A stretch of DNA of 46,889 bases, from positions 1-46,889 of the forward strand of contig JANMAD010000486.1 of the NCBI GenBank assembly GCA_031359515.1. Reading direction: 5' to 3'. Numbering within the stretch: position 1 is the first letter of the stretch; each line of letters begins with the position of its first letter. The notes beneath the pieces are model-generated. The model made no database searches. It was given only the letters and a program-made list of their open reading frames with translations, and had not been told where the DNA came from. This document shows, piece by piece, positions 11,257-44,672 of this stretch. The position numbers were made by a program, and so were the translations under genes. Origin of the DNA: Acidobacteriota bacterium. GTDB taxonomy: Bacteria > Acidobacteriota > Blastocatellia > Pyrinomonadales > Pyrinomonadaceae.

Positions 11257-11272
11257 CAACCGTGCTCTTCTC

Positions 11273-16588: not shown

Positions 16589-18547
16589 TCAGTCGGGTAA
16601 ACCAACCGCGAGCGGCGCGGCATTGACCGGCAACGCTTGCGCGTGTGTGTCGCTGTCAACAAAGGCGCGCTGCCAGAGTTCGAGCATGAACAAGGCCCAG
16701 AGCGCGGTGGCGTGATCGCGCCGCCCGCGCTCGTGCTCGGCTAAGAGTTGCCGCACGTAGCGCGGCTCGACGTAGCCGCGTCCTTCGGCGCGCGTGTCCG
16801 TCAACGTGTCGTGCATCTGTGCGCGCAGTTGCTCGTTGATCCATTGTTGCAGCGGCATGCCGAAGCCTTGCTTCTCGCGGTGCAGGATTTCGGCGGGCAC
16901 GAGATCGGCGACGGCGCGCTTCAAGATGTGCTTCGTCTCGCCGTTGCGCAGTTTGAGCGCGGCGGGGATTTGCACGACGTACTCGATCAGCTTGTGATCG
17001 AGCAACGGCGCGCGGGCTTCAAGCGAGACGGCCATCGTCATGCGATCAACTTTGGTCAGGATGTCGCCGGGCAAGTAAGTCTTGCTGTCGAGATAGAGCA
17101 AGGTGTCGAGTGGCGCGCCGGTCTTGACGCGCTTTGCGTAGTTGTGAAAGCGCGTGACGGCGAGACCCGGCTCGCGCAGTTGCGCACGAAAGTCGGGCGC
17201 GTAGAGCGCGGCGCGATTGAGCGCGGTGAAGACCGAGACGCTGTCGAGATAACGATCAACGGGATCGAGCGCGACGTTGTTGAGATAGTTGCGCCCCCAC
17301 GCGCCGTGCGGCAGACGCTGACTCAAGGGCTGCATCACGCCCTGCCGCACGGCGCGCGGCAGACGCGCAAAGGCTTGCCGGTTTTGATCCGTGACGTAGC
17401 GCGTGTAGCCAGCGAAGAGTTCATCCCCACCGTCGCCGGAGAGCGCGACGGTGACGTGCGCGCGGGCGAGTTTGGCCACCATGTAGGTCGGGATGGCGGA
17501 CGGATCGGCGAACGGCTCGTCGAAGTGCCAGACGAGATCGCCGACGACCTGACAGATGTCCGGCGTGACGACGAACTCGTGATGCTCCGTGCCGAAATGT
17601 TTGGCCGCGACGCGCGCGTATTTCAGTTCGTCAAAGCTGTCTTCGTTGAAGCCGATGGAGAAAGTCTTGACGGGGCCGCTCGCATGCCGCGCCATCAAGC
17701 CGACGATGGTGGAAGAATCAACGCCGCCGGAGAGGAACGCGCCGAGCGGCACTTCCGCGACGAGCCGGATGCGGACTGCTTCATCGAGCAGAGCGCGCAG
17801 TTGCGTCACACATTCCTGCTCGTCGCGCGGCGGCGCATCGGCAGTGGCAAGCGGCTCGTAACGAAAGTCCCAGTATTGCGTCATGGCCACGCGCCCCTCG
17901 GCGGTGAAGTGCAGGATGTGCCCGGGCGGAAGTTTCTGTATGCCGCGAAAAATGCAGAACGGATCGGGCACGTAGCCGAAGGTGAGATAGGCGTCAATCG
18001 CCTCCGGGCTAATCGCGCGCTCAATCTCCGGATGCTGCAAGAGCGACTTCAACTCGGAGCCGAAGACAAGCGAACCGCCGCGCGTGAGCGCATAGTAAAG
18101 CGGCTTCTTGCCGACGCGGTCGCGCGCAAGCAATAGTTCGCGCTTCCGTTGATCCCAGATGGCGAAGGCGAACATGCCGCGCAAATGCTCCACACATGCG
18201 CTGCCATACTCTTCGTAGGCGTGGACGATAGTTTCCGTGTCCGAATGTGTGTGAAAGCGGTGGCCGCGCGCTTCGAGTTCGTGTTTCAACTCCTGGAAGT
18301 TATAAATCTCGCCGTTGAAGACAATGGAGATCTCACTGTCGCAGCCCGACAGCGGTTGCTGGCCACCGGCGACATCAATGATGGCGAGGCGGCGCATGCC
18401 GAGCGCCGCGCCCTCCGCCGTCAGCATCGTGCCCTGATCGTCCGGCCCGCGATGTGCGATCACATGGCACATGCGCTCAAGCACGGCGGCGCGCTCCGCG
18501 CGCGGCGGCGCATCGTGTCGGCTGACGAATCCGGCAATGCCGCACAC
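16589..18547 (-). CDS. AsnB-family glutamine-dependent amidotransferase, paralog 3
   Basis: 652 aa, GTG start directly followed by TGC (Cys2). RGPDD, GEIYN, and PP-loop LSGGVDSSTIVGLM. Only 9 nt from paralog 2. Confidence 0.85.
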   Translation of the reverse strand: MCGIAGFVSRHDAPPRAERAAVLERMCHVIAHRGPDDQGTMLTAEGAALGMRRLAIIDVAGGQQPLSGCDSEISIVFNGEIYNFQELKHELEARGHRFHTHSDTETIVHAYEEYGSACVEHLRGMFAFAIWDQRKRELLLARDRVGKKPLYYALTRGGSLVFGSELKSLLQHPEIERAISPEAIDAYLTFGYVPDPFCIFRGIQKLPPGHILHFTAEGRVAMTQYWDFRYEPLATADAPPRDEQECVTQLRALLDEAVRIRLVAEVPLGAFLSGGVDSSTIVGLMARHASGPVKTFSIGFNEDSFDELKYARVAAKHFGTEHHEFVVTPDICQVVGDLVWHFDEPFADPSAIPTYMVAKLARAHVTVALSGDGGDELFAGYTRYVTDQNRQAFARLPRAVRQGVMQPLSQRLPHGAWGRNYLNNVALDPVDRYLDSVSVFTALNRAALYAPDFRAQLREPGLAVTRFHNYAKRVKTGAPLDTLLYLDSKTYLPGDILTKVDRMTMAVSLEARAPLLDHKLIEYVVQIPAALKLRNGETKHILKRAVADLVPAEILHREKQGFGMPLQQWINEQLRAQMHDTLTDTRAEGRGYVEPRYVRQLLAEHERGRRDHATALWALFMLELWQRAFVDSDTHAQALPVNAAPLAVGLPD

Positions 18548-18551: not shown

Positions 18552-20069
18552 TTAATTTACCTCTGACGGGCGGCGCGGAAAGCGCGCGAATTGTCGCCGC
18601 ATCATCCCGCGCTCTTCGGGCGTCCAGAGACCCAGCGCGAAGACGGCGATGGCATAGACGAGACCATAAGCGACGCCGCACACGACGAGCACCGCGAACG
18701 GGCCGCGGTCGAGTACGGCGTGCCTGACGGCGAACGCCACCAAGCCGGCGGCGAGCGCCGCGATGGCTATTTTCCCGACATCCTTCAACAACACCGCGTC
18801 GTGCCGCGTCACGCCCAGTGCCTTCATCATGCGGCGCGTTGACAGACCACGCTCCACGATGTTCGCTCCTACAACCAAAGCGATGACGCCGACGAGGCCC
18901 AGCCGCGCCGTGCCGAACCATAACGCGATGAAGATCAGCACAAAGGTGGTCATCTTCACCCGTAGCAGGAAGAAACGGTGCTCAGGATAGGCGCGGATCA
19001 CGGGGTCGAAGACGACGGCGTAGACGGGGATCAGCGTCAGGTTGACGGCAAGGATGGGCCAGCTCGCGAGGTACGCGGGCGTGAACAGGAAAGACAAGAA
19101 CTCGCGCCCGACGATCATCATCAAGACGTAAATCGGGAAGAAGATCGCCGCAAGCTTCCGGATCACGCGCGCCGTCAAGAGAATGATCTCGCGCCGCTCG
19201 CCCTGCTTTTGCAGCAGACTCACGCGCGGGATCATGACCGAGCCGACCGACTCGCCGAGGATGGCGATGAGCGGCAATTCAAAACATCCGATGGAGTAGA
19301 AGGCGAAAGTCGCCGGCCCGAAATGGTTCGAGACGAAATAGTTGTGCATGTCGTTCTGCAACGCGAACAGCACGCCGGAGAAACCGAGCGGCAGCGAGTA
19401 GGCGAGTTGCGTGCGCATCTGCCCCCAGTTGAAGCCGCGCCAGAAGCGCGGGAAGCGCGAGCGCAGATAGGCGAGCAGAATAATCGTTTGCAGTATGCCC
19501 TGAATCAACGCCGCGAAGATGAGCGCGCGAACCGTGCCGAAGATGACGGCCGCGCCGACGAGCAACAACGTCTTCGTCAATTGCGCCGCGATGATGAAGA
19601 GCGTCGCCAGCACCGTCTCTTGATGCGCGACCGCGACTGTCTCCAAAAAGAGCGAGGTCATCCAGAACAAGATAACCAAGCCGATCAGGGGGGCGAAGGG
19701 CGCGATCTCAGGACTGTTGAAGAGGCGCACGAGCAGCGTCGGGCTGAGCGACAGCGCGAGACAGGCTGCGCCGCCGAGCGTAGCGTTGAAAATGAGGATG
19801 TTGAAGACGATCTGCCCCTGCCGCTCGCGTTCGCGCTCGCGGGGCAGAAAGTAGTAGGCGCTCATCGCGAAGCCGAGCGGCAGCACCGAGAGTGACGTGC
19901 CGACAACGAGGAAGACCTGCTTGTAGAAGCCGAACTCGAACTGACTGAGCCGGCGCACCAGCAGCAGCGGCAGCACGAAGCCGAAGGCAAACGCCAGCGT
20001 CTTCGCCGTCACCAACCAGAACGCGCGAATCGAGAGTGAGCTGACTTTCTTTTCTATCACTTCACTCAT
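18552..20069 (-). CDS. Wzx-like MOP-family polysaccharide flippase
   Basis: The ATG at 20069 (MSEVIEKK...) lies 1 nt after the upstream stop. About 505 aa and highly hydrophobic with many predicted helices. N-terminus FWLVTAKTLAFAFGFVLPLLLVRRLSQFEFGFYKQVF is typical of polysaccharide biosynthesis (Wzx) proteins. Confidence 0.7.
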   Translation of the reverse strand: MSEVIEKKVSSLSIRAFWLVTAKTLAFAFGFVLPLLLVRRLSQFEFGFYKQVFLVVGTSLSVLPLGFAMSAYYFLPRERERERQGQIVFNILIFNATLGGAACLALSLSPTLLVRLFNSPEIAPFAPLIGLVILFWMTSLFLETVAVAHQETVLATLFIIAAQLTKTLLLVGAAVIFGTVRALIFAALIQGILQTIILLAYLRSRFPRFWRGFNWGQMRTQLAYSLPLGFSGVLFALQNDMHNYFVSNHFGPATFAFYSIGCFELPLIAILGESVGSVMIPRVSLLQKQGERREIILLTARVIRKLAAIFFPIYVLMMIVGREFLSFLFTPAYLASWPILAVNLTLIPVYAVVFDPVIRAYPEHRFFLLRVKMTTFVLIFIALWFGTARLGLVGVIALVVGANIVERGLSTRRMMKALGVTRHDAVLLKDVGKIAIAALAAGLVAFAVRHAVLDRGPFAVLVVCGVAYGLVYAIAVFALGLWTPEERGMMRRQFARFPRRPSEVN

Positions 20070-20070
20070 A

Positions 20071-21015
20071 TCAAACTTCTTTTGGCTCACCGAGACGCGC
20101 CACACGACGTACCTTCCGTCCCATCTGTGCGGCAAACACATGCGGGTGGCGGCGCAGGAGCGTGCATGCGCTGAGCGCTGAGCGCCCCCAGCGACGGGCG
20201 TGCGCATGCGCCCGCATCTGTGCGACGAGTTGTTCGCTGGCGAAGACCTGCTCGTAATATTTTATCCCGCGCAGGCACGCCGCTTCGTAACGCTCGTCTC
20301 CCTGCACCTGAGCCAACTGCGCACGTAGCACGGCAGAGATGTACTGCCACATCTTCTCCAGCTTGAGCGAGTAGTTCGCCCCGTGCTGGCGATACTCGAC
20401 CACCGCCTCCTCATAGCAGAGGATGGGGAACGCATGCGCGACGCGCAAATAGAGATCGTAGTCGCCCGAATGGTTGAACTTGGTGTCGAAGCCCTTGACC
20501 GTCTCGAACACCGCGCGGCGGAACATGACGGATGCAGGACAACCGATAAAATTGGCGCACAGCAACTCGTAGTAGTGATCGCGCTCGACGCGGCGGCGCT
20601 CCTCAAGCGTCGGCCTACGCTTGCCCTCGCCGTCAATGTAAACGTGGCGACCCGTGACAAACCCGCATTCGGGGTGCGCCTTCAGAAGCGTCACGCCCCG
20701 CTCGAAGGCGTGCGGCAGGAAGCGGTCGTCGGCGTCAATGAAGACCTGAAATTCGCCTTGGCTATGACTGAGACCCGTGTTGCGCGCTGCTGACACGTCC
20801 TGGTTCTTCTGCCAGACGTAATTGACCTGCGGGTAGCGCGCGACGACCTCCCGCGGATTGTCTTGCGACTCATCATCCACGACCGTGATCTCGTAATGCG
20901 GATAGGTCTGCGCCAGCACGCTCTCGATGGCTTCCGCCAGAAAGCGTGCCTGGTTGTAGCAGGTGATAACCACCGAGACGAGACCGGGCTTTGTCATTTC
21001 AGCACTCGCGTCCAT
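20071..21015 (-). CDS. GT2-family (GT-A) glycosyltransferase
   Basis: VSVVITCYNQARFLAEAIESVLAQTYPHYEITVVDDESQDN, and a DxD-like IDADD. Confidence 0.8.
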   Translation of the reverse strand: MDASAEMTKPGLVSVVITCYNQARFLAEAIESVLAQTYPHYEITVVDDESQDNPREVVARYPQVNYVWQKNQDVSAARNTGLSHSQGEFQVFIDADDRFLPHAFERGVTLLKAHPECGFVTGRHVYIDGEGKRRPTLEERRRVERDHYYELLCANFIGCPASVMFRRAVFETVKGFDTKFNHSGDYDLYLRVAHAFPILCYEEAVVEYRQHGANYSLKLEKMWQYISAVLRAQLAQVQGDERYEAACLRGIKYYEQVFASEQLVAQMRAHAHARRWGRSALSACTLLRRHPHVFAAQMGRKVRRVARLGEPKEV

Positions 21016-23773: not shown

Positions 23774-24859
23774 TCACCTCGCCCCGCTCCGGCGCGCACG
23801 TCGCGGCGCAAGTCCTACAATGAACCCCGTGCCCCAGCATAAGTGGATGGCGGTAAAGCTCAAGAAAATGGGGCCGAGCAGATTGAAAGCGCCGCCGCGC
23901 CGGGCGAGTTGTGCGGCACAGAAGAGTGCGAGCGCCGAGTAGGCAACGATGATGGCCAACAACAGCCAGACGAACGGAGACCACGCCAGACTGAACGCGC
24001 CGGACGCGACGAGCGCAGCGACGAAGCCCGGCGCGACGAGGTGACGCAGTTTGATTGAGCGCGGATGCAGTTTCACCATCTGCGCCTTCCAATAGCCGTA
24101 GCGAAAATACTGGCGGCTCAATTCCTTGAGCGTCGGGCGCGCGAAATACTGACAGTGCGCGGCCGTATCGAGCAGCACTTGCCCGCCGCGCGTCCGCACC
24201 CGGTAGTTAAAATCATAGTCTTCATTCGCGAACAACTTCTCATTAAAGCCGCCAAGTTCCTGCCAGAGAATCTTGTGGAACGCGCCGAATGGCACAGTGT
24301 CAACGAATTGCGGTTCGGCGAGTGCGGGCGCGCGGTATTTAGCATCGCCGATGCCGAACGGATGCGCCACCGCCAGCGCGATAGCACGCGCCATGAGCGT
24401 CTCAGCCCCTGCGCTAATGCGCCACGGCATTCCCACGACGGCTGCGTCTGCCTCGCTTAGCAGTTCGACACAGCGGCGTACGTAATTCGGCGATGGGATT
24501 GAGTGTGCGTCCATACGCACGATAATCTCGCCGCGCGCATGTGCAATACCGAGATTGAGACCTATCGGAATATGGCGGGCAGAATTCTCAACGATGCCGA
24601 CACGCACGGCGGGGTGGGCGGCAACGAACCGCGCAATCGCCGCGCGTGTCCGGTCAGTCGAGTTGCCGTCAACGACGATGATTTCATACGCGGTCTCGTC
24701 ATACTGCGCGGCAAGATTGGTCAGCACTTGCTCGATAAATCGTTCTTCATTAAAGCAGGGAATGATCACAGAAACGGTCGGGGTTGCGGCCGCGACCGTT
24801 GCCACATGTGCATGCGCAGTCGGCGCTACGCGCACTGTCATCGCCACCTCGTTACTCAT
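23774..24859 (-). CDS. GT2-family glycosyltransferase with C-terminal transmembrane helices
   Basis: VSVIIPCFNEERFIEQVLTNLAAQYDETAYEIIVVDGNSTDRT and RMDAHS. Hydrophobic C-terminus LVAPGFVAALVASGAFSLAW...LLLAIIVAYSALALFCAA. Confidence 0.8.
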   Translation of the reverse strand: MSNEVAMTVRVAPTAHAHVATVAAATPTVSVIIPCFNEERFIEQVLTNLAAQYDETAYEIIVVDGNSTDRTRAAIARFVAAHPAVRVGIVENSARHIPIGLNLGIAHARGEIIVRMDAHSIPSPNYVRRCVELLSEADAAVVGMPWRISAGAETLMARAIALAVAHPFGIGDAKYRAPALAEPQFVDTVPFGAFHKILWQELGGFNEKLFANEDYDFNYRVRTRGGQVLLDTAAHCQYFARPTLKELSRQYFRYGYWKAQMVKLHPRSIKLRHLVAPGFVAALVASGAFSLAWSPFVWLLLAIIVAYSALALFCAAQLARRGGAFNLLGPIFLSFTAIHLCWGTGFIVGLAPRRARRSGAR

Positions 24860-26396
24860 ACGCGGATACCCTTTCTGCTTGTGGCTCCGGCAGCGTGAAA
24901 GAGTTGCTGTGGGCTGCGTCAGTTGGGTCGGCGAAAGGTGTTGTCTGGCTCGTGGTGTTAGTTTGTTTGGCGCGCTGCAAGGCGTAGAGCCGACGGAGGA
25001 CGATGGCGTAGCCGACTAGATAGTAGATGTACCACTGATAGGCGACGGACGCAAAGAAGCTGCTGATCATGTAGCCGACGAGGCTCGCCTGTAAGCCCAC
25101 GGCGAGATAGTAGATGCGTGTCTGCCGGCGCGTTTGATAGTTTTCGCGCTCGATCTCGCGCAGTCGTTTGAAAGGCGAGAGCATGAACAACACATAAATC
25201 ACTAACGCGAAGATACCCATCTCCGCGGAGACTTGCGTGTAGGCGTTGTGGCTCACCAGTTCGTGAATGGAGACAAAGTGGAAGTTGCCCATCCCGACGC
25301 CCAGTAAGGGATGCCGGAGCGTGATTAGAATCGATCTGATCAGCAACGCCTGCCGCGAGTCGGCCGAGGCAGCGCCCACCAGATCACTACCGCGCCCGAC
25401 AATTGACCCAAGCCGGTTCGTGTACTCGCCCGGCGCAAGGAGCATGAAGCCGAGCGTGGCGGCGAAGATTAGCACCACCATGAGCAACCGGTTGCGGCGG
25501 CCGATTTTCCACGCCAGCACAGCCGCCACCCCCATCAAGCCTAAAAAGCCGCCCCGCGAAAAGGTGACAACGTTACCCGCCATCGTTAATAAGACGCAGC
25601 CCGCGTAGACGATTTTCATCAGCGCGTTGCGCGTGCTAAACATCAGCGCGACCGCAATCGGCGTAGCCGTCACGAGGTAAAGTGCCATGTCGTTCGGGTT
25701 GCCGAACATGCCGCCGACAATGCCGCCAATGCGCCCGCCCTCTTGCGCAAAGCGGCCGGCGCTATAATCGCTCACGGCGCTAATGCTCAGCAGGCAACTG
25801 ATCGCCAGCGACAGTAAGAGCAGTCCTTTCAACCGCGCTTCAGTCCGCACCACATTCAGCATGACGATGAACATCAGCACGGCCTTAACGAACTCTTTAT
25901 TAAACGTCTCCCACGCTTCCGCCGGCTGGATGGCGAGGGGCATCGACAGCAGGGCGGCGAGCGCCAGCAGCAGGACTAAATTAAGCTCACGCGGGCGCGC
26001 AGTCAGGCTACCTTCAAGCGCGAGTTGCGAAGGCACGAAGACGGCAATAGTGGCAATAGCGATCCAGTATGCGAGCGAGGTGAAAGACGCAAGCGCGGGG
26101 ATTAGCTCATAGGGCCGGAAGTAAAGGACGACGGTAAAGAGGAAGAGGCCGAGATAGCTGAAGAGGTGGCCGTGTTTGGCGCTCCAGCGTTCGGATGTTT
26201 CGGGGGCCAGAGGGGCGGCGGCGGGCGCGACTGCTATATCTAAAATTTCCGGCTCATCTACTCTGTCGTTAGCGCGCGGCTCGTGCGCGTCAGGCACGGG
26301 CCGAACGCTCTCGGCCGCCGTCTTGCTTCCCCCCGGGTTGCGCCAACGTGCCGGCGTAACAGGCTCGTAATCCTCTGTATAGCGAGTATTTGGCAT
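24852..26396 (-). CDS. Wzy_C / O-antigen-ligase-family membrane protein (polymerase or ligase), copy 1
   Basis: 514 aa, multi-pass. FSRGGFLGLMGVAAVLAW, HPLLGVGMGNF and SHNAYTQVSAEMGIFAL are typical of Wzy_C. First gene after a 316-nt gap. Confidence 0.7.
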   Translation of the reverse strand: MPNTRYTEDYEPVTPARWRNPGGSKTAAESVRPVPDAHEPRANDRVDEPEILDIAVAPAAAPLAPETSERWSAKHGHLFSYLGLFLFTVVLYFRPYELIPALASFTSLAYWIAIATIAVFVPSQLALEGSLTARPRELNLVLLLALAALLSMPLAIQPAEAWETFNKEFVKAVLMFIVMLNVVRTEARLKGLLLLSLAISCLLSISAVSDYSAGRFAQEGGRIGGIVGGMFGNPNDMALYLVTATPIAVALMFSTRNALMKIVYAGCVLLTMAGNVVTFSRGGFLGLMGVAAVLAWKIGRRNRLLMVVLIFAATLGFMLLAPGEYTNRLGSIVGRGSDLVGAASADSRQALLIRSILITLRHPLLGVGMGNFHFVSIHELVSHNAYTQVSAEMGIFALVIYVLFMLSPFKRLREIERENYQTRRQTRIYYLAVGLQASLVGYMISSFFASVAYQWYIYYLVGYAIVLRRLYALQRAKQTNTTSQTTPFADPTDAAHSNSFTLPEPQAERVSAYE

Positions 26397-26712: not shown

Positions 26713-27927
26713 CTATACCGGCACACTTTCTTCAGCGCTGACTAGCACCAACGTGCGCACGCGCTCGCGCAGGGCCAGCTCGAAGCGGCGCGCCTCTTCG
26801 ATCTCGGAGAAGGCGAGCGCGCGGAGTTGTTGCTCGATGCGGCGGCGATAATCCGAGACGAGCGAGTCGGAGACGCTCAAGCGCGCCGCCGCTTCGAGCT
26901 GCGTCACGTGATCGGGACTCAGGTAGCAGTGCCACAAGACGCCGAGCATGCGGTCGTACTGCTTCGACTTGCCACGCACAGTGGCGTGCAGACTCTGCAA
27001 AAACTGATCGACGTAACCTACGGCCTCATGCTCCGATTCGCGCCGCAGCAAGCCCTGTTCGGGATTCTCGCGCCCATCCACCGGCTCGAAACCGCGCCCC
27101 TGTTCATCGTCGTCGCCGCCGCCAAGTGGCACGAGATAAATGTCCATCACGGGCAGGCGCGACATGACGAGGCTGCGCAAAGAGCGCACGTCCACCGCCG
27201 CGTCCGCCGCTTCCAGGACACTGATGATCAGGTCTTCGAGATCGGAATTGCTGATGATGATCTGCGCGTCGCCCGTGCAGCCGACCATGCGCGTGTCGCG
27301 CTGGCGGACGGGGATGAGTTGGATGCGCTGCTCTAACTCTTGTGCGCCGCGCCGTGCCTTAGCGTCGGGCCACTCGCTCAAACCATAGATGCGATCCGCG
27401 AGCCGCCGGTGCGTCTCTTCGCTCTCGCCCGCGCCGTCGAAGCGGCGGAAGTTCGGGCTGGATTGGATGATGGTCGAGATGCGGCGCGCAAGCCGGTAGG
27501 ATTCAGGATGGCGTTTGCGCAATTCCGCGGTCAACAAATTCGTCAGCTCGATCTGGCCGATCTCACATTCGATCTCGCCGTCCGACATCTCCGTGTCCAA
27601 ATAGTGTTGGAAGCGCGCCTTGCTAAGGAGCGTGACGAATAGCTCCTGTGTGAGATCGACATAGGCGTTGCCGCGCTCGCCGCCTTCGACGAGTAGGCCG
27701 GCGCTATAGGAAGCGCGCACGAGCGGGTGGCTGCACACCACGCGGTGCAACTCCGTCCAGAGCCGGGTCACGTCGGAACGACGCAATGATTCGACCCACT
27801 GACCGCTGACGCGCGTGCGCTCGGGCGCGTGCGTGCGCGGCGCGGGCGATGGCGCGTGCAGTTCCTCTTCGCTGCCCGTCAGCGCGGTCTCGAATGGTTG
27901 ATTCTGATCGGCGGGTGTTGCAGCCAT
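26713..27927 (-). CDS. Atypical ECF-like sigma-70 family protein with a long insertion between region-2-like and region-4-like segments (function inferred)
   Basis: 404 aa, ATG start. The region-2-like segments are YVDLTQELFVTLLSKARFQHY and IELTNLLTAELRKRHP. Compare ECF patterns DLxQExF...W and RIARNxxxDxxRRR. The region-4-like HTH is RMLGVLWHCYLSPDHVTQLEAAARLSVSDSLVSDYRRRIEQQLRAL. About 185 aa, including an acidic GGGDDDEQG stretch, lie between them. Confidence 0.45.
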   Translation of the reverse strand: MAATPADQNQPFETALTGSEEELHAPSPAPRTHAPERTRVSGQWVESLRRSDVTRLWTELHRVVCSHPLVRASYSAGLLVEGGERGNAYVDLTQELFVTLLSKARFQHYLDTEMSDGEIECEIGQIELTNLLTAELRKRHPESYRLARRISTIIQSSPNFRRFDGAGESEETHRRLADRIYGLSEWPDAKARRGAQELEQRIQLIPVRQRDTRMVGCTGDAQIIISNSDLEDLIISVLEAADAAVDVRSLRSLVMSRLPVMDIYLVPLGGGDDDEQGRGFEPVDGRENPEQGLLRRESEHEAVGYVDQFLQSLHATVRGKSKQYDRMLGVLWHCYLSPDHVTQLEAAARLSVSDSLVSDYRRRIEQQLRALAFSEIEEARRFELALRERVRTLVLVSAEESVPV

Positions 27928-28812
27928 GTTACTCGTTTCGTTCGTTGGGCCAGATTCGTAAGGCAGGCTAGGTGAGGCTTCTTTGGTCGGGCGCTCAGGG
28001 TACGGTTGTCAGCCGGCTTTGCTCCTTTACCGTCCGTCTCTCTTAGGTGAGGGCACGTTAAAGCCGCGCGGTCGCCTATGGGACGAATACGACGTGCGTC
28101 TCACCGAGTTGTGATTGTCAAGACAGTTTGCCCGCGTGCTTGCAGCTTAGGAGAGTGTTGCCTGCAAGCTGAAAGATGTCTCACGTGCTGGCACCTCAAT
28201 CTGGTTGCCGCACATTATCTCTATGAGGGGCGGCAAACGCAATCAGCGATGGCAACTTTAGGCAGCGGGGGGCAATAATTCTTCTATCGGCTGAAGCACG
28301 AGCACCGGGCGTTGGCTCAAGCGTCTGCGCACAGCGCGGGTGGCAGTCCTACCTCATCCGGGATGAAAGCAGACGGTCGCCGCCGCACGTGGCTGCTGTC
28401 TCAATGTCACAAGCTGGAAGTCCGTACCAGATGACCGCAAAGGGGAACGGGCGCGGCCGACCAGTGGGAAGCAGGAAGAACGTCGTCTCCCTGACGACAT
28501 CGAGATATTAACAGTTGCCCACAGAATGAGCAACATCTTTTTACATTTGCCCCAAGCTATTGATTAGACAGGCAGAAAATCATCTCGCGCCCGCGCCGAG
28601 TTGTGGAACTGACCGTCCATTGACGCTTTCTTTGTAATGACTAAGCGAAGTGCCCTTTGATTCGATTGTTCTACGGCTGCGGCTTCCTCATCGTTCTTAG
28701 CCTAGCCCGCGCGTGTGCTGTGCCTGTTACTGGGGCGCTTCGGTCAGAGTCCGTGAGGATATGTGTGCCCTAACAAGTTCGACTCTGACAAAGAGAAGAA
28801 AGAGAGGAGCCA

Positions 28813-29136
28813 ATGGGTTCGGTTAGCACAGCCACATTCTGTAAGCGCAAGACCTGCCCGGCCGCCGAGATGCTGCTGCTCTACCATGATGCAGCGCTCG
28901 CGCCCAGTCTGCGCCGCGAAGTCGGAGCGCACTTGGCCGGGTGCGATTTCTGCGACGCGGAACTGTTTCTGCTCACGCGCTTCCCGCCGCCATGCTTGCC
29001 CCGCTACGCGCCCGTCGCGATCCCTGAATCGCTCTATCATCTCGCCCGTGCATTGCTCTGCGGCGCGCCGCGCGTCGTCAGCCGCACGCTCGAACTTATC
29101 TATGACAGCGACCATCTCTCGCTAACCGACGCATAA
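28813..29136 (+). CDS. Small soluble zinc-binding anti-sigma factor-like protein (zf-HC2 / ZAS, RsrA-like size)
   Basis: 107 aa. ATG preceded by GAGGAG within a purine-rich tract. CPAAEMLLLYHDAALAPSLRREVGAHLAGCDFCDAEL gives Cys15, then His40-x3-Cys44-x2-Cys47. No hydrophobic helix. Confidence 0.7.
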   Translation: MGSVSTATFCKRKTCPAAEMLLLYHDAALAPSLRREVGAHLAGCDFCDAELFLLTRFPPPCLPRYAPVAIPESLYHLARALLCGAPRVVSRTLELIYDSDHLSLTDA

Positions 29137-29152
29137 CGCCGCAGACATAACT

Positions 29153-29267
29153 CACCACAAAGGCACGAAGGACACAAAGAGCAAGACAGAAGGATGAACG
29201 CGGAACGATGAATGAATAGTCTTTCCTTCATCATTCCTCATTCCGCGTTTCCTTTGTGCCTTTAAGG
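29153..29267. repeat. Imperfect inverted repeat of about 110 nt with heptad-phased arms between convergent genes (likely bidirectional terminator or REP-like element)
   Basis: The left arm has 7-nt units ending in GAA: GACAGAA, GGATGAA, CGCGGAA, CGATGAA (29185-29212). The right arm units are TTCATCA, TTCCTCA, TTCCGCG, TTTCCTT (29227-29254). AACGCGGAA (29197-29205) pairs with TTCCGCGTT (29241-29249). AAAGGCAC (29159-29166) pairs with GTGCCTTT (29256-29263). Confidence 0.6.
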
Positions 29268-29292
29268 TCGCAGCAACCAACGTAGTCGCCAC

Positions 29293-31197: not shown

Positions 31198-32715
31198 CTA
31201 ACTCGTCATCTGGCGCGTGTCACTTGTCGCCGCCGCGTGCGGCGTGCGCCGACGCCGACGACGCGATTGCTTCTCATCTTCGATGCGCCGATCAGTTGTC
31301 GCTAAAGCTGCGAGTATGAGGAAGAGGAGCGCGATGGAAGTGATGTGCAGCGGGAAGTCGAAGAAGCTATGCACCAGCACTGCGCCGCAGCCCGTGAGCG
31401 CGCCCGCGCTCGTGCCGCGCCGGAACTTGTCCGCCGTGTCGAGCCGCGCGAGGCCGCGCCGGAAGAGTGCGACCAAGAAGAACAGCGCGAGCGCGCCGCC
31501 GAGCAGTCCCGCATCGGCGAGAATTTGCAGATAGTCGTTGTGCGCCTGTTCCAACCGCAGCGCACCGTGCAACGGATCGTAGCGCGTATAAGCGACGCCG
31601 AACGCGCCTAATCCAGCGCCCAGGACGGGATGTGCTTTAATCACTTCAATCGTGCCGCGCCAGAACTGCACGCGCCCCGACGTGGGATCGTCCGCGTTGA
31701 CCGTGCCGACCAGACGGCTGAGCGATTGCTCGCCACCGACCATGAGCACGGCCGATAAGAACACCAGCACAAGCACGAACCCGATGCCGAGCCGCACCAA
31801 AGCCGCGCGCAGGCGCGCACGTCCATCAACTATCTCGTCCGCGGCGCGGTCACGGCGACGCAAGGCACCGCCCAAGACGAAGAGGAACAAGACCTCGCAC
31901 GCGAAGCTCAGCATACCGCCGCGCGAGTTGGTCAGCACGAGCGCGAGGGCCATCAACACCACGGCGAACAGGTAAAGCAAGCGGCGGTCGCGCTCGATTG
32001 CGCCCGCAAATAAAAGCCCGAGCGGCAGCGCCAGCGTCAACTCCATGCAGGCAGCGAAGTGATGACTGTTGATGAACGGGCCGAATGGATGTCCTTGATA
32101 CGGCGTGCGCAGCCAGTAGATTTGATCTGGGTTGACGAAGTGTTGCAGCAGACCGAAGAGGGCCAGCACGAAGCCGAAGACCGTCACGGTGCGCACGACG
32201 ATGCGTAAGCGAGCGGGGCTATCGGTAAAGACGAGCAGCGCGGCGAAATAGATTAAGAGGGCGGCGATCTGTACGAGCGCAAAGCGCGTCGCGTAAGGGT
32301 CGAGCGAGATGGCATGCACCGGCGCGACGCCCGTATCATCTGCGCCACCTGCGCCGAACGGCAACAGTTGTATCAGACCGACGATGAACAGGCCCGCGAG
32401 CGGCCACTGCAAAGCGTTGCGGCTCACGCGCAAACTGCCTGTGCGCCAGGCATCCGCTACCCAGAGCGCGCCGACGAGACACGCGCCCGCCGCGAAGAAC
32501 ATGAGCGCCCACGTATGCACTGTGCCGAAGGCGAGCGTCGAAAGCACGAGCGCCAGACAAAGAGTCAGCATGATGAAGCGACTAGCCAGCGTGCGCGGCA
32601 CGGGCACGAGCGGGTGCGCTGGAGCAGCAGTCGGCGCACTGACCGGCGCATGCTGCGCCGCCGGCGTAGCAGCCTCAGCGTGTGTGGCCGAGGGATTGGA
32701 GGTTGAAATCGTCAT
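31198..32715 (-). CDS. Wzy_C / O-antigen-ligase-family membrane protein, copy 2
   Basis: LTNSRGGMLSF, HPVLGAGLGAFGVAY and EQAHNDYLQILADAGLLGGAL. The longest ORF starts at a TTG (32814). The first ATG (32715) still overlaps the upstream gene by 41 nt, and another ATG lies at 32571. Start is uncertain. Confidence 0.65.
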   Translation of the reverse strand: MTISTSNPSATHAEAATPAAQHAPVSAPTAAPAHPLVPVPRTLASRFIMLTLCLALVLSTLAFGTVHTWALMFFAAGACLVGALWVADAWRTGSLRVSRNALQWPLAGLFIVGLIQLLPFGAGGADDTGVAPVHAISLDPYATRFALVQIAALLIYFAALLVFTDSPARLRIVVRTVTVFGFVLALFGLLQHFVNPDQIYWLRTPYQGHPFGPFINSHHFAACMELTLALPLGLLFAGAIERDRRLLYLFAVVLMALALVLTNSRGGMLSFACEVLFLFVLGGALRRRDRAADEIVDGRARLRAALVRLGIGFVLVLVFLSAVLMVGGEQSLSRLVGTVNADDPTSGRVQFWRGTIEVIKAHPVLGAGLGAFGVAYTRYDPLHGALRLEQAHNDYLQILADAGLLGGALALFFLVALFRRGLARLDTADKFRRGTSAGALTGCGAVLVHSFFDFPLHITSIALLFLILAALATTDRRIEDEKQSRRRRRRTPHAAATSDTRQMTS

Positions 32716-33991
32716 ACCAGACTTTGCCGAAGAGCGGGCACAGCGTTTCCGCGCACGACGAGCGCACGAGGCGCACGATGATCGCCTCGGTCTGCGTGCC
32801 GGTCGTGAACTCAAGCGTCACCGCTTGCCAATCGCTTGCGCCGGCGGCCAACGGCGCGGACGCGGCCAACACATGCGCTGGCTCACCCGCGTCAACTACT
32901 TGCGTCAACAACGTACTCGCACTATTCAACTCTTCCGTGCGGACGAAGTAGGACAGGCGGTAGCGTTGCTGCGGCTCGACGACAACAGACTGCGAGACAT
33001 GATGGAAATCGAGCGCGCTTGCAGCATTGAAGACGAGCCGCAGACTGCGTGCGCCGTCGTGCTTCACGCGCTCGTCTAAACTGATCTGTGCCTGCGCGAC
33101 AGGCGCGACCTGCCAGTCGTACCAACTCTTGCCCGCCGGCCCGACCGGCGCTTCAAACCCGCCATTCAGCAACTGTCCGACATCCGGGCCTGACCCGCCC
33201 TGTGCGCCTTGGCGCTGGCCGAGCAGATCGCGTTGCACGGCGAGCGCCGCGCGGTAGTGTTTCATAGCCAAGAGTGTCTGCACTATCTGCTCGCCCGTTG
33301 CGCGTTGCTCCCCTTGCTGCGCGGGCGTCAACGCTGACCAGAGGCGCAACGCATCATCGGTGCGTTGCTGCTTGAGCAGATATGTGGCCAGCCCGGCGCG
33401 CGTCTCGGCCGCATCGCCGATGGCGGCCAGCACCGCCGGCATGTCCGCGCGTAAGACGTGCCACGCGAGATCGAACATCTGCGGCCGAAATTTAAGCGCA
33501 TCGCCCGCGCTCGCATGGCGCAACTCGGCGAAGGCTTCGTCCGTGCGCCCGGCGCGCAACAAGAGATTGCCGAGATACCAGTGTGGGTCAGGATAGTTGG
33601 GCGCAAGCGCGATAGCGCGGCGCAAGGCGCGCTCGCTGCCCGCGTCGTCGCCCGCGAGACCGCGCGCCCGGCCCAACTCGAACCAGAGCCGATAATCATT
33701 CGGCGACAGCGCGGCCGCCTGTTCATACTCGTGGACGGCGACCGCCAATTGCTCTGGCTCGAAGCTACGTTCGGCCAGCCGCGCGAGCGTGAAGTGGGCT
33801 TGCGGATCAGTGGGCGCGAGTTGCATGGCCGCCCGCGCCGTGCTCGCGTCCGACAGCCACTCTGCCATCGTGTCGCCCAGACACCAACGCGTGACGTACC
33901 ACAGGCACACGAGCGCCACGAGCAATGGCACGAGCAGCAACACACGTCGCCATGCCGCACGCACTTCGATGGAGGTGATTTGCTCGGACAT
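32675..33991 (-). CDS. Membrane-anchored TPR-repeat protein with C-terminal jelly-roll (CBM-like) domain
   Basis: 438 aa. Anchor VLLLVPLLVALVCLWYV. TPR-like repeats (YEQAAALSPNDYRLWFELGRA, LRRAIALAPNYPDPHWYLGNLLLRAGR). C-terminal LLNGGFEAP...SLRLVFN...YRLSYFVRTEEL...VWYDDFNL resembles CBM4/9-like modules. Confidence 0.6.
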   Translation of the reverse strand: MSEQITSIEVRAAWRRVLLLVPLLVALVCLWYVTRWCLGDTMAEWLSDASTARAAMQLAPTDPQAHFTLARLAERSFEPEQLAVAVHEYEQAAALSPNDYRLWFELGRARGLAGDDAGSERALRRAIALAPNYPDPHWYLGNLLLRAGRTDEAFAELRHASAGDALKFRPQMFDLAWHVLRADMPAVLAAIGDAAETRAGLATYLLKQQRTDDALRLWSALTPAQQGEQRATGEQIVQTLLAMKHYRAALAVQRDLLGQRQGAQGGSGPDVGQLLNGGFEAPVGPAGKSWYDWQVAPVAQAQISLDERVKHDGARSLRLVFNAASALDFHHVSQSVVVEPQQRYRLSYFVRTEELNSASTLLTQVVDAGEPAHVLAASAPLAAGASDWQAVTLEFTTGTQTEAIIVRLVRSSCAETLCPLFGKVWYDDFNLQSLGHTR

Positions 33992-35960: not shown

Positions 35961-36926
35961 TTAGTTCTGACCGCTATAGTGCGCGATCACTTTTTGCAGA
36001 ATGCCGTCGAGTTTGATCTCCGGTTTGAAGCCGACGAGCGCGTTGACCTTCGTGGTGTCGGGCACGCGGCGCGGCATGTCCTCGAAGCCTTCTTCGTAAG
36101 CCTCGCCGTAAGGCACGAACACGATCTCGGAGTCCGATTTGGTCAACTCCTTTACGCGCCCGGCGACTTCGAGGATCGACACCTCTTCGCTTGAGCCAAT
36201 GTTAAAGACCTGCCCGACCGCCGCATCATTGTCCATCAACTTCATCAACGCGCCGACGACATCGCCGACATAACCGAAGCAGCGCGTCTGCTTGCCGTCG
36301 CCATAGACGGTCAGAGGGCGACCGGCGAGCGCTTGCTTAACGAACGTCGGGATGACCATGCCGTACTGCCCCGTCTGGCGCGGCCCGACCGTGTTGAAGA
36401 GGCGCACGACCACCGTCGGCAATTTCTTCTCGCGCCAGTAGGCGAGCGCGAGAAATTCGTCAATCGCTTTCGAGCAGGCATAAGACCAACGCCCCTTTGT
36501 CGTCGCGCCCATCACGAGATTGCCGTCCTCGCGAAACGGCACGTCGCTCGACAGGCCATAGACTTCGGAGGTCGAAGCGATCAGCACCTTCTTCTTTTTC
36601 TTGTTGGCGAGCGCGAGGATCACTTCCGTGCAATGCACGTTCGTCTCAATCGTGCGCACGGGGCTTTCGACGATCAGTTTGACGCCGACGGCCGCTGCCA
36701 GATGAAAGATCACGTCGCAGCGATCCACCAGTTCAGCCGTGACCTGCTGATTCTGCACGGTGTCAATCGTGTAATGAAAGCGCGGATGCTCTTTCAAGTG
36801 CGCGATGTTCTCAATGCTGCCGGTCGAGAGATCATCAATCACATAAACTTCGTCGCCGCGTTCCAGATACGCATCCGATAGATGCGAGCCGATAAAGCCC
36901 GCTCCGCCTGTAATCAAAACCTTCAT
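35961..36926 (-). CDS. NAD-dependent nucleotide-sugar epimerase/dehydratase (extended SDR)
   Basis: 321 aa. MKVLITGGAGFIGSHL and catalytic YACSK (YxxxK). Confidence 0.8.
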   Translation of the reverse strand: MKVLITGGAGFIGSHLSDAYLERGDEVYVIDDLSTGSIENIAHLKEHPRFHYTIDTVQNQQVTAELVDRCDVIFHLAAAVGVKLIVESPVRTIETNVHCTEVILALANKKKKKVLIASTSEVYGLSSDVPFREDGNLVMGATTKGRWSYACSKAIDEFLALAYWREKKLPTVVVRLFNTVGPRQTGQYGMVIPTFVKQALAGRPLTVYGDGKQTRCFGYVGDVVGALMKLMDNDAAVGQVFNIGSSEEVSILEVAGRVKELTKSDSEIVFVPYGEAYEEGFEDMPRRVPDTTKVNALVGFKPEIKLDGILQKVIAHYSGQN

Positions 36927-36950
36927 AAAGTGAATTTCTCTGCTCCGCTG

Positions 36951-38210
36951 TTAATTAGAAATCTTGTCCGTCAACGCGGGCGCAGTTCGCGTTGCCGCGT
37001 GCGCGTGTTGCCGGTCGAAGCGCGCCAACCGCTCCGGGTAACGCGCGAGGAGCATCGCATAGACCTCCGCGATCTGCCGCACCATCGTCTCGGCGCGAAA
37101 CGCCGGGTCAACGTGTCGCCGCCCCGCCGCGCCCATCTGCGCACGCAACTGCGGATCGTCCAACAGCCGCGCAATACAATCGGCCAGCCCCACCGAATCG
37201 TTCGGCTTGACCAGATAACCCGTCTGATCAGGGATGACAACTTCGGGCGCGCCGTCGATGTCGAACGACACGCACGGCTTGCCCATCGCCAACGCCTGCG
37301 GCAACACGCGCGCCAACCCTTCGCGCAGAGACGTATGCACCACCACGTCCATCGCCGCGAGCATTTCCGGGATGCGCTCGCGATCAATCAAACCGGCGAA
37401 CACGAAGTTATCCAGAATCCCTGCTGCCCGTGCGCGCTCGCGCAGATGCTCTTGCAAGATGCCGTCGCCGATCAGAAAGAAGCGCACGTTTGGATGGCGG
37501 CGCACGATCTCCGGCGCAGCGTCCATCAACTGATCGTGCCCCTTGAGCGGAAACAACCGCGCGATTTTGCCGACGACGGGCGCGTCCGCGGGGATGCCAA
37601 ACTCGCGCCGGATCGCTTGCGCATCAACCTCCGCCTTGAGAAACCAGTCAAGCTCCATCCCGCTATAGATCGTGCAAAACTTCTCCGGCCGAGCAATCCG
37701 CGCCGCGATGGCCTTGTCGCTGATGATGCTCGACACACTGATAAAGTGATCTGTCAGCGGCGCGCAAAGCTTCTTAATAACGCGCCACGTCCGGTTCACC
37801 AACCACGGTTGATATTCGTGAAAGACGAGGCTGTGCAGCGTGTGCACGATGAACGGCGTGCCCGCGAGTTTGGCGGCGAGCCGCCCCAACACGCCTGCCT
37901 TCGACGAGTGCGTATGCACGATGTGATAACGCCCCTGTTTGATCAGGCGATACAGTTTCCAGAACGCCGTCACGTCCGCCCACGGATTGATGTTGCGCCC
38001 CAACTCCGGCACGACCACGAGCCGCGTCGTCTCACGTGCGCGCGTCAACAACTCGCCTTCGGGGCCATTGTCCACGCCGCTCGCCAGCGTCACCTCGTAC
38101 TCCGGCAACTGATCGAGTCCCTCGACCGACAGCAGCGTATTCTCCTGCGCGCCGCCCACGATCATGCGCGTGATGATGTGCAGCACGCGGATTGGTTTAG
38201 TGTCTGACAT
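36951..38210 (-). CDS. GT4-family glycosyltransferase
   Basis: 419 aa. IRVLHIITRMIVGGAQENTL at the N-terminus; HTSLREGLARVLPQALAMGKPCVSFDIDGAPEVVIPDQTGYLV. Confidence 0.8.
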   Translation of the reverse strand: MSDTKPIRVLHIITRMIVGGAQENTLLSVEGLDQLPEYEVTLASGVDNGPEGELLTRARETTRLVVVPELGRNINPWADVTAFWKLYRLIKQGRYHIVHTHSSKAGVLGRLAAKLAGTPFIVHTLHSLVFHEYQPWLVNRTWRVIKKLCAPLTDHFISVSSIISDKAIAARIARPEKFCTIYSGMELDWFLKAEVDAQAIRREFGIPADAPVVGKIARLFPLKGHDQLMDAAPEIVRRHPNVRFFLIGDGILQEHLRERARAAGILDNFVFAGLIDRERIPEMLAAMDVVVHTSLREGLARVLPQALAMGKPCVSFDIDGAPEVVIPDQTGYLVKPNDSVGLADCIARLLDDPQLRAQMGAAGRRHVDPAFRAETMVRQIAEVYAMLLARYPERLARFDRQHAHAATRTAPALTDKISN

Positions 38211-40181: not shown

Positions 40182-40946
40182 TTAGCGACTATGACTCGCT
40201 TGCGTGGCGTCTTGCGCGTCGAGTTTGTTCGCGCCGGTCTCGGCCACGAGATTGGAGGCGCGCAGCAGCGACTCGAACGTGCCCGCGTCCGTCCACCAAC
40301 CGTCAAGCTCGTCCCACGTCATCGTGCCGCGCGCGATGTAAGCGTTATTCACATCCGTGATCTCCAACTCGCCGCGCCCCGACGGTTTGAGCGTCTTGAT
40401 GATCTGGAAGACTTCCGCGTCGTACATGTAGATGCCGATGACGGCGTAGTCCGACTTCGGCTCCTGCGGCTTCTCCTCGATACGCACGACACGCTGCCCA
40501 TCCAACTCCGGCACGCCGAAGCGTTGCGGGTCATGGACCTTCTGCAACATGATCTTCGCGCCGTCGCCCTGCTGCCGGTAGGCGCGCACGGCTTGGCAGA
40601 TATTCTTCTCGATGATGTTGTCGCCGAGGACGACGCAGATCGACTCGCCGTCGGCGAAGTCTTCGACGAGCGCAAGCGCCGCCGCGATGCCGCCCTCGCC
40701 TTCCTGATAGGTATAGTTGATGTGTTTCAACCCGAACGCCCGGCCATTCTTCAAGAGGCGGAGAAAATCGCCGGCCGAATTGCCGCCCGTCACGATCATG
40801 ATATCCGTGATGCCCGCGTTGACCAGCGTCTCAATCGGGTAATAGACCATCGGCTTGTTATAGACCGGCAGCAGATGCTTATTCGTCACCTCCGTCAGCG
40901 GCCTCAGCCGCGTCGCCAAGCCCCCGGCCAATACGACACCTTTCAC
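40182..40946 (-). CDS. Sugar-1-phosphate nucleotidyltransferase (short RmlA-like, glucose-1-phosphate thymidylyl/uridylyltransferase family)
   Basis: 254 aa. GTG start preceded by GAGGAGG. MKGVVLAGGLATRLRPLTEVTNKHLLPVYNKPMVYYPIETLVNAGITDIMIVTG. Confidence 0.8.
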   Translation of the reverse strand: MKGVVLAGGLATRLRPLTEVTNKHLLPVYNKPMVYYPIETLVNAGITDIMIVTGGNSAGDFLRLLKNGRAFGLKHINYTYQEGEGGIAAALALVEDFADGESICVVLGDNIIEKNICQAVRAYRQQGDGAKIMLQKVHDPQRFGVPELDGQRVVRIEEKPQEPKSDYAVIGIYMYDAEVFQIIKTLKPSGRGELEITDVNNAYIARGTMTWDELDGWWTDAGTFESLLRASNLVAETGANKLDAQDATQASHSR

Positions 40947-41051
40947 GCTACTCGCCTCCTCGTCAAAGAATCAGTCGGCCGCACCCGCGCACCGCCTCTT
41001 AGAGCGCCAGTCGCCACAGCGCAAAAGTTCCTGTCGCGCCTAACTAACTTG

Positions 41052-44637: not shown

Positions 44638-44672
44638 GGATAGGTGCGGCGGCAGGTTATGTTGCCACGCGG

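Follow-up and report, generated by a model that had tools for sequence, protein, structure and literature searches.

A putative sigma-70-like protein with a large internal insertion and a divergent zinc-anti-sigma-like gene in a polysaccharide locus of Pyrinomonadaceae

What regulates the exopolysaccharide (EPS) genes of Pyrinomonadaceae? This family, like other Acidobacteria, is dominant in soils, where the polysaccharides of these bacteria shape aggregation. The question is raised by two divergent genes of contig JANMAD010000486.1 (assembly GCA_031359515.1), a stretch of 46,889 nucleotides (nt) that we refer to as the window. One gene (26713–27927, minus strand) encodes a 404-amino-acid (aa) protein, and the other (28813–29136, plus strand) a 107-aa protein resembling the zinc-anti-sigma (ZAS) proteins. 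An initial annotation had read them as an oversized sigma factor of the extracytoplasmic function (ECF) type and its anti-sigma factor. Regulator candidates in acidobacterial EPS loci carry the annotation 'hypothetical', and regulators of EPS of the PEP-CTERM/XrtA type are known only in Proteobacteria (PrsK, PrsR and sigma-54); Haft et al. 2006 state that for PEP-CTERM systems of other phyla the regulators remained to be discovered. From the sequence comparisons described below, the 404-aa protein is most likely a dedicated transcription initiation factor, or a sigma-derived activator, for XrtA/PEP-CTERM-type EPS genes. The fuller proposal, that it belongs, far diverged, to the sigma-70 superfamily and switches these genes together with the divergent 107-aa protein as its zinc anti-sigma partner, falls in our judgement a little short of an even chance.

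Both open reading frames (ORFs) have the codon usage of genuine genes. Their GC content at third codon positions (GC3) is of the coding type (0.79 for the 404-aa ORF and 0.74 for the 107-aa ORF) and typical of genes in this window, the overall GC of which is ∼61%. The two starts lie 885 nt apart (27928–28812), as the initial annotation had it. Its statement that the 107-aa gene is the only one on the plus strand also held: GC3 is 0.64 and 0.60 in two large plus-strand ORFs (36882–38207 and 40191–41069) but 0.79 and 0.84 in the opposing minus-strand ORFs, and the two are therefore shadows of minus-strand genes. The 404-aa protein is the product of a real, conserved gene and the founder of a large unannotated family centred on Acidobacteriota. 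At 90% identity there are >2,584 clusters of homologs; every one bears the name 'hypothetical', and most come from metagenome-assembled genomes of Pyrinomonadaceae/Acidobacteriota. An exhaustive search, clustered at 50%, left 239 representatives; full-length members reach as low as 24–30% identity, and a relative is encoded in 561 stretches of the one-genome-per-species data. A plasmid collection contained no homolog.

We compared the 404-aa family with ECF sigma factors by profile alignment using hhalign. The ECF reference alignment was built from E. coli RpoE (sequence verified, 100% identity) and 11 annotated plasmid ECFs, later 20, giving 12 reference sequences and then 21 after widening from plasmid records. 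An N-terminal sigma-2-like domain (residues ∼41–142; 27502–27807, minus strand), which is helical and has remote similarity to ECF regions 1.2–2.4, was matched with a probability of 58.5% (P=9.6e-5) with the 12 references and 67.5% (P=5e-5) with the 21. This domain contains DLTQELF, resembling the 2.1/2.2 helix, and the 2.3/2.4-like segment IELTNLLTAELRKR. A sigma-4-like domain (residues ∼289–372; 26812–27063, minus strand) combines the linker motif 'PE' with a helix resembling 4.1, VLWHCY, and a helix-turn-helix (HTH) resembling 4.2, QLEAAARLSVSDSLVSDYRRRIEQQL. The region from the 'PE' motif through 4.1 and 4.2 was matched at 56% and 72% with the 12 references and at 36% with the 21, with P-values from 3e-5 to 4e-4. 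The two matches are colinear, in the order and polarity of a sigma factor. Reversed-alignment controls gave probabilities of 0.1–0.4%, and none of the 60 column-shuffled controls per domain reached the real score (33.1 versus 11.6 ± 2.1, and 39.1 versus 10.3 ± 1.9). The peptide segments quoted in the initial annotation are all present in the 404-aa translation and were aligned to the expected ECF regions, namely YVDLTQELFVTLLSKARF (residues 89–106) to regions 2.1/2.2, IELTNLLTAELRKRHP (residues 126–141) to regions 2.3/2.4 and the HTH LEAAARLSVSDSLVSDYRRRIEQQLRAL (residues 344–371) to region 4.2. Judged by these profiles, the matches with sigma-2 and with sigma-4 are clearly non-random, yet below the usual level of proof.

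The aligned positions include the most constrained residues of both families. D91, Q94, N130 and R137, which are invariant or nearly so among the 404-aa homologs, fall on the near-invariant ECF residues D48, Q51, N80 and R87, and the spacings within each pair, D-x2-Q in region 2.2 and N-x6-R in region 2.4, are identical between the two families. The motifs expected of the sigma-70 superfamily, the core-binding D-x2-Q-E of region 2.2 and the N-x6-R of region 2.4, were thus both found. Between regions 2.2 and 2.3 the 404-aa family has 7 additional residues, and the 'PE' motif before sigma-4 is common to it and the ECFs. The family consensus reads W..L...D...W..L.R.V..HPL.R followed by DLTQELFL.LL.K.RF.HY in its first segment, IEL.N.L...LRKR.PESYRLARRIS in the second and VLWHCYF......Q...A..LG.SDSLVS.YR..IE..L at the C-terminus. 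Pfam sigma models gave sub-threshold signals in the family, and these coincide with the segments just described. Sigma70_r2 was matched in 2 of the 34 members (P0237 and P0278), on the 2.1/2.2-like helix (best E=1.4e-3; 18.8 versus 24 bits), Sigma70_r4 in 4 of the 34 (best E=1.2e-3), and the C-terminal region of the consensus matched Sigma70_r4_2 with E=5e-3. The sigma-4 matches were intermixed with generic HTH matches.

The AF2 model of the 404-aa protein has a mean pLDDT of 84, and its N-domain alone one of 93. Searched against the PDB with Foldseek, the full model had no significant match, and the ranking consisted mostly of sigma factors (SigD, SigB, SigA, SigL, SigH, sigmaS and T. thermophilus sigmaA). 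Good superpositions with the model were obtained for isolated sigma-4 domains, 3vfz_B with a TMt of 0.70 and a root-mean-square deviation (rmsd) of 2.8 Å, 3vep_D with 0.63 and 3hug with 0.52–0.57. The C-terminal domain of the model therefore has the sigma-4 fold, which is also that of LuxR-type HTH domains. For the N-domain the top match was region 2 of sigmaE (5or5; E=1.1, TM 0.39), and SigH/E and SigL chains were also listed. The structure comparison gives good support for sigma-4 and is suggestive for sigma-2.

Several observations weigh against a sigma factor. The initial annotation had proposed profile searches for sigma-70 regions 2 and 4, and here the window protein had zero matches in Pfam and NCBIfam at E≤10; its claim of ECF-like sigma-2 and sigma-4 regions survives only as the remote homology seen by hhalign with clean controls. 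Searches of PDB sequences, with the single sequence and with the profile, matched no sigma factor (the hits obtained, FEN1, a baseplate protein and RamR, were rejected as spurious). The hhalign probabilities are moderate, and that of sigma-4 drops to 36% with the larger ECF profile. The confident core of the N-domain alignment covers regions 1.2–2.2 only, although the alignment reaches 2.4, and the family does not conserve the Trp-Leu found in region 2.3 of ECFs. The N-domain model, well predicted as it is, compares with sigma-2 structures at TM values of 0.24–0.39, an rmsd of 6.6 Å and E-values of 1.1–7.5. Non-sigma regulators with a sigma-4-like HTH (LuxR/FixJ and MarR types) appear in the full-model Foldseek list. 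We also found no shared candidate target promoter, either in the window or in the related loci that we fetched.

A rival explanation is that the 404-aa protein is an ordinary DNA-binding one-component activator or repressor of EPS genes, acting via its C-terminal HTH and not binding core RNA polymerase, with sigma features that are convergent or a relic of a sigma ancestor. In its favour, no curated sigma model is matched and the N-domain model fits sigma-2 poorly. HTH_23, HTH_24, HTH_3 and GerE score equal to Sigma70_r4 on the family, one member bears the JGI name 'YdaS/Cro superfamily' regulator, the large conserved middle region has no sigma-factor counterpart, and MarR, FixJ and StyR are in the Foldseek list. 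However, an HTH regulator does not account for the N-domain, which is not an HTH and independently matches ECF regions 1.2–2.2 (P ∼5e-5) with coinciding invariant residues, nor for the sigma-factor order and polarity of the two matches, the 'PE' linker motif shared with ECFs, or a constant neighbour of the anti-sigma type. We hold this explanation to be rather unlikely, and homology of the 404-aa protein to sigma-70-type factors to be probable on the profile evidence. Whether the protein also has a true sigma function is a separate matter, to which we would give nearly, and at best, an even chance.

The 107-aa protein is, from its sequence, a soluble CHCC zinc-anti-sigma-like protein with predicted zinc binding. 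Its family comprises 37 close homolog clusters and was extended to ∼35% identity by HMM and tblastn searches of the fetched loci; complete copies are 95–112 aa long. The motif H-x3-C-x2-C with a fourth Cys/His ∼25 residues upstream, which characterizes ZAS proteins, is present. The ligand set named in the initial annotation (Cys15, His40, Cys44 and Cys47) is complete and invariant in 76 of 76 distinct homologs. The spacing from Cys to His is 25, the same as in ChrR and, as the initial annotation had noted, close to the 26 of RsrA. The absence of a membrane helix was likewise borne out, since no hydrophobic or transmembrane segment was detected in the protein (maximum KD19 of 1.06). The only non-ligand cysteine, Cys10, is variable among homologs.

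The proposed check against zf-HC2 (PF13490) gave a partial answer. The window protein was matched with E=0.0028, and its 18.2 bits stay below the gathering cutoff of 22.2; 18 of the 26 family members were matched too, with a best E of 4e-4. The NCBIfam model 'antisigmaE' scored 12.6 bits against a cutoff of 50. When the family profile was searched against the PDB, the top matches were ChrR (2q1z_B, E=0.0073) and DdvA (8rlz_A, E=0.012), with C15 at the position of the first zinc ligand of ChrR; the single sequence had a weak match to RslA (3hug_B, E=0.43). A C-terminal tail, L(T/S)LTDA, is present in 59 of the 76 distinct homologs and is encoded in the window by the last six codons (29116–29133). 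The tail may be a protease or degradation tag, which would suggest regulated proteolysis of the 107-aa protein.

We examined the coupling of the two genes from both sides. Via the 404-aa protein, and with a search alignment of 11 sequences, 83 loci were fetched, 80 of them from one-genome-per-species data (all Pyrinomonadaceae/Blastocatellia) and 3 by exact look-up of two close homologs; 78 had at least 700 nt upstream and were counted. Via the ZAS family 80 metagenome loci were fetched, of which 41 with at least 1200 nt upstream were counted. A divergent ZAS gene was found in all 78 of the 404-centred loci, 545–1011 nt away, and a divergent 404-aa homolog in 39 of the 41 ZAS-centred loci, at 475–1046 nt. 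The two genes adjoin but are divergent and never co-transcribed. One of the two exceptions (L119, 1607–3049) has an IS66-family transposase upstream of the ZAS gene, where the 404-aa homolog was expected. The other (L172, 687–4448) has a divergent ZAS member between the genes for a PEP-CTERM-motif protein, a sigma-54-dependent response regulator and a single-domain receiver protein; the response regulator is PrsR-like (REC, Sigma54_activat and HTH_8 domains), and L172 provides a second connection between the small zinc protein and PEP-CTERM regulation. A canonical ECF sigma gene was absent from all 163 loci (83 plus 80), so that the ZAS gene was nowhere partnered with a different adjacent ECF, the outcome that the initial annotation had named as contrary to its reading. 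The divergent pairing is fixed in Pyrinomonadaceae.

The pairing has a second possible explanation, in which the 107-aa protein serves an ECF sigma factor with its gene elsewhere, or is a redox- or zinc-sensing module of the PEP-CTERM/EPS network, and lies beside the 404-aa gene through inherited synteny. Because the whole EPS locus is syntenic within this one bacterial family, adjacency alone is weak evidence of interaction, and this counts against a direct relation of the two proteins. So do the ZAS paralog of L172, which has no 404-aa homolog within 3.5 kb, and the distant members of the 404-aa family, none of which has a ZAS neighbour (7 loci, 6 members). The genes are also divergent, with separate conserved promoter regions, unlike classic co-transcribed sigma/anti-sigma operons, and the ZAS protein evolves much faster (35–55% identity, versus 74–82% for the 404-aa protein). 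A faster-evolving anti-sigma partner is, however, normal for ECF/anti-sigma pairs. Also against this explanation, the pair stays fixed at 475–1046 nt while other parts of the locus gain and lose genes, the 163 loci have no canonical ECF sigma gene within reach, and the IS66 insertion explains one of the two ZAS-centred exceptions. We find inherited synteny doubtful as the whole explanation, and place a direct sigma/anti-sigma relation between the 404-aa and 107-aa proteins, as far as sequence can tell, at the point of balance.

The co-occurrence near polysaccharide loci that the initial annotation had proposed to survey is found as a fixed pair in Pyrinomonadaceae and does not extend to the distant 404-aa family members, which lack the ZAS gene and of which 3 of 6 are in polysaccharide loci. 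Those three (37–39% identity) are at L097 3022–5605, L096 2550–3458 and L100 2583–6483. In one case the gene comes after those for a Ser/Thr kinase and an AAA_16/AAA_22 ATPase, in another it stands before a deacetylase gene with Polysacc_deac_1 and DUF3473 domains, and in the third it is divergent from an operon for UDP-glucose dehydrogenase, GT2 and flippase. The members in L099 and L102 have housekeeping neighbours.

Between the two sigma-like domains lies a family-specific insertion (residues ∼157–288; 27064–27459, minus strand), delimited by secondary structure, pLDDT and conservation. The initial annotation had put the separation of the domains at about 185 aa. A large insertion is indeed present; the cores of sigma-2 and sigma-4, measured from R137 to P289, are ∼150 aa apart, against 31 aa at the equivalent positions of RpoE (roughly 120 aa more). 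The insertion is made up of a small beta element, a conserved motif, a short module of helices and a disordered, acidic linker, at the end of which stands the 'PE' motif. The conserved motif, VPxRxRDxRxxGxxGDxQxIISNxEL (residues ∼204–230; 27238–27318), is among the best-conserved stretches of the family, yet it is modelled as low-confidence coil (pLDDT ∼55–78); it may be a segment for interaction, or for contact with DNA or RNA polymerase, that becomes ordered only upon binding. Against the ECF profiles the insertion had no match by hhalign (0.3%), and Foldseek returned only weak matches to MarR-type winged helices.

Casas-Pastor et al. 2021 (PMC7826278) require of an ECF that Pfam match both sigma-2 and sigma-4, that sigma-3 be absent and that the interdomain distance not exceed 50 aa. 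Sigma70_r3 was not matched by the window protein, the family members or the consensus in Pfam, in agreement with the required absence of sigma-3, and the comparison with groups 1–3 rests on a thin reference profile of 4 sequences. The protein falls short of the others, having neither a Pfam Sigma70_r2 (PF04542) nor a Sigma70_r4/r4_2 (PF04545, PF08281) match and exceeding the interdomain limit. Failing three of four operational criteria, it cannot be filed as an ECF. That it is instead a group-3-like sigma factor, the middle of which is a cryptic, extremely diverged sigma-3 with a region-3.2-like acidic finger, we regard as improbable. In its favour, the best full-length Foldseek matches are the three-domain B. 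subtilis SigD and SigB (probability 0.72–0.75, 335–371 columns), then SigA and sigmaS, and sigma-3 plus region 3.2 has the topology seen in the insertion, where a short module of helices leads into the acidic disordered stretch immediately ahead of sigma-4. Against it, hhalign of the middle region with the FliA/RpoS/RpoH/RpoD profile gave P=0.56 (4 sequences only), the whole family matched the group 1–3 profile with P=0.008, barely better than the reversed control (P=0.042), and Sigma70_r3 is unmatched.

The divergent gap contains conserved non-coding elements. A promoter-like element of the 404-aa gene (28505–28546, minus strand) is near-invariant in 60 species-level loci. It consists of an A-tract, GTGTAAAAAGATG, a -35 TTGCTC (28533–28528), a 17-nt spacer with TGn and a -10 TAATAT (28510–28505), the -10 consensus over the 60 aligned loci being TAnnAT. 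We predict it to be a promoter of the housekeeping type with an A-tract and an extended -10, and transcription to start near 28497–28500. A simple scan for consensus sigma-70 promoters, which gave only one weak site beyond the stop codon of the 404-aa gene, missed this element because its -35 matches at 3 of 6 positions. The element occurs once in the window (0 expected by chance), and the 68 exact pattern matches in the 83 loci include no locus with two; being present at most once per locus, it is not a regulon motif. From the element to the ATG of the 404-aa gene there are 577 nt in the window and 219–622 nt across loci. The start of this long 5' leader contains two conserved stem-loops (28433–28492, minus strand; RNAalifold on 32 sequences), with compensatory changes in 7 of the 11 pairs (e.g. 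AU:12/GC:12), and hairpin 2 exposes an invariant TTCCCCTT loop. The two stem-loops may be a cis-regulatory leader RNA. Rfam recognized no known RNA in the gap or the leader.

A second conserved block of the divergent gap (28600–28660, strand not assigned) has a conservation of 0.65–0.8 across 60 loci and reads, on the minus strand, GGGCGCTTCGCTTGGTCA...AGAAAGCG.CAAT...TTCCACAACT. It has no evident promoter consensus on either strand, and may be the promoter/5' region of the 107-aa gene, or an operator. On the other side of the pair, a long hairpin (29137–29292, minus strand; core 29185–29260) lies between the convergent genes for an AMP-forming ligase and the ZAS protein. The 156 nt fold with a minimum free energy of -59.6 kcal/mol (z = -4.65), and none of 200 shuffled sequences folded equally well. 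It is probably a bidirectional terminator of the upstream operon and the ZAS transcript that insulates the pair. A sub-threshold Rfam match to 'mir-6301' at 29185–29260 was rejected as an artefact of the hairpin shape. Downstream of the 404-aa gene, the 316-nt stretch up to the Wzy gene is not conserved and its gene content varies, and no target promoter could therefore be deduced from it.

On the reading of a diverged sigma factor with a ZAS partner, the pair could work in the following manner. The 404-aa protein would be made from its own conserved housekeeping-type promoter, and the structured 5' leader (∼220–620 nt) suggests that its supply is probably also controlled after transcription start. 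In Pyrinomonadaceae, the zinc-bound 107-aa protein would bind the surfaces of sigma-2 and sigma-4 and keep the 404-aa protein inactive. Oxidation or metal loss at the CHCC site, as in RsrA, would free it; alternatively, release could come from degradation of the 107-aa protein via its C-terminal LTLTDA tail. The freed 404-aa protein would then direct or activate transcription of the EPS genes. A constitutive-looking promoter of its own together with a long structured leader fits such a combination of post-transcriptional control, through the leader, and post-translational control, through the ZAS protein. In this scheme the binding of RNA polymerase, a direct contact between the 404-aa and 107-aa proteins, the signal and the regulon are all inferred. 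The boldest version, which we think unlikely, would make the family a new sigma-70-type lineage with an ECF-like sigma-2, a novel internal domain (invariant RDxR...GDxQxIISN) and a sigma-4, acting as the master switch of XrtA-type EPS in Pyrinomonadaceae, which are among the most abundant Acidobacteria of soil. There this three-module sigma factor would be gated by a soluble CHCC ZAS protein, which would wire thiol/redox stress or zinc status directly to matrix production, with the riboregulatory leader as a second layer.

Among the closest known systems are SigR-RsrA of Streptomyces coelicolor and other pairs of an ECF sigma factor and a cytoplasmic ZAS protein such as SigH-RshA. They likewise have a small soluble CHCC partner, 107 aa here and 105 aa in RsrA. 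RsrA has the ligands C11, H37, C41 and C44, and its N-terminal cysteine makes it redox-releasable; the N-terminal Cys precedes the HxxxCxxC motif by 25–26 residues in both proteins, and the neighbour carries ECF-type sigma-2/sigma-4 signatures. The differences are that the genes here are divergent with a gap of ∼0.5–1 kb and not co-transcribed, that the context is EPS and not thiol homeostasis, and that the 107-aa protein has, compared with RsrA, only one non-ligand Cys, the variable Cys10. RpoE-ChrR of Rhodobacter sphaeroides and DdvS-DdvA of Myxococcus xanthus supply the top solved-structure matches of the 107-aa family profile. ChrR is of the HHCC type and has a C-terminal cupin sensor domain, and the DdvA-related PDB chain 8rot_B is a CHAT-domain-containing protein of 991 aa, whereas the 107-aa protein is a bare CHCC anti-sigma domain with the LTLTDA tail.

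The 404-aa protein shares with the ECFs (group 4), including the non-canonical ECF41, ECF42 and ECF238, the order of modules, the D-x2-Q, N-x6-R and PE motifs and the lack of a detectable sigma-3. The extensions of ECF41, ECF42 and ECF238 are N- or C-terminal; the extra domain of the 404-aa protein is internal, its linker is far above the 50-aa limit, and Pfam sigma-2/sigma-4 matches are absent. Group 3 sigma factors with soluble antagonists (FliA-FlgM and SigF-SpoIIAB) also combine more than two domains with a small cytoplasmic antagonist and include the best full-length Foldseek matches. The 404-aa family, in contrast, has no profile similarity to groups 1–3 or to sigma-3 in the comparison with 4 sequences, and its antagonist would be a ZAS protein, a type characteristic of ECFs. 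The PrsK/PrsR/sigma-54 system of Proteobacteria is likewise a dedicated regulatory module placed within XrtA-type EPS loci or close to them, and the genes regulated there have long intergenic regions upstream. There the components are a histidine kinase, an enhancer-binding protein and sigma-54; here they would be a sigma-70-like factor and a ZAS protein.

The literature that we searched contains no description of the 404-aa family or of the 404/ZAS module, in line with the initial annotation, which had called it not a described regulatory module. What is new here is an unclassified insertion-bearing sigma-like partner, the divergent layout and the EPS context for a sigma/ZAS module. If the proposal is right, a sigma-like family with thousands of members has been escaping Pfam, NCBIfam and the ECF classification pipeline, and the ZAS redox switch has a new pairing. 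Such a family would also provide a testable handle on the matrix decision in hard-to-culture bacteria, consisting of two genes, one promoter and one leader.

Polysaccharide genes lie on the same strand on both flanks of the gene pair. The upstream flank has a WecA-like priming transferase fused to CoA_binding_3, a TPR/CBM protein, a Wzy_C protein and the AMP-forming ligase, and the downstream flank a Wzy_C protein, three GT2 genes, methyltransferases and further genes. In an NCBIfam scan of the locus, the XrtA-system deacetylase TIGR03006 scored 316 bits against a cutoff of 276, and strong sub-cutoff matches were obtained for the amidotransferase TIGR03108 (two copies) and the glycosyltransferases TIGR03087 and TIGR03088. 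By these marker genes, the locus is assigned to the XrtA/PEP-CTERM type. In the initial annotation the pair headed the locus and lay directly upstream of an operon of 30 genes. The divergence is as it described; the position is not, and the regulatory pair is in the middle of the locus.

Some further features of the locus were observed. No NCBIfam match was obtained for 42127–44721 (minus strand) at E≤1e-5, or for 18552–20207, 5539–6756, 18–1151 and 1259–2164 (all minus strand) at E≤1e-10; the sizeable genes without a match include those for an 864-aa and a 551-aa protein. The locus has at least two paralogous XrtA/PEP-CTERM-type amidotransferase (AsnB-like) genes, 6766–8745 and 44673–46556, a count that rests on the scanned genes, 14648–16579 and 16589–18547 lying outside the scan. 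A heparinase-II/III-like gene for an 846-aa protein (8755–11295) is located within the biosynthetic cluster, and two Wzy_C genes (24852–26396 and 31198–32814) bracket the regulatory pair.

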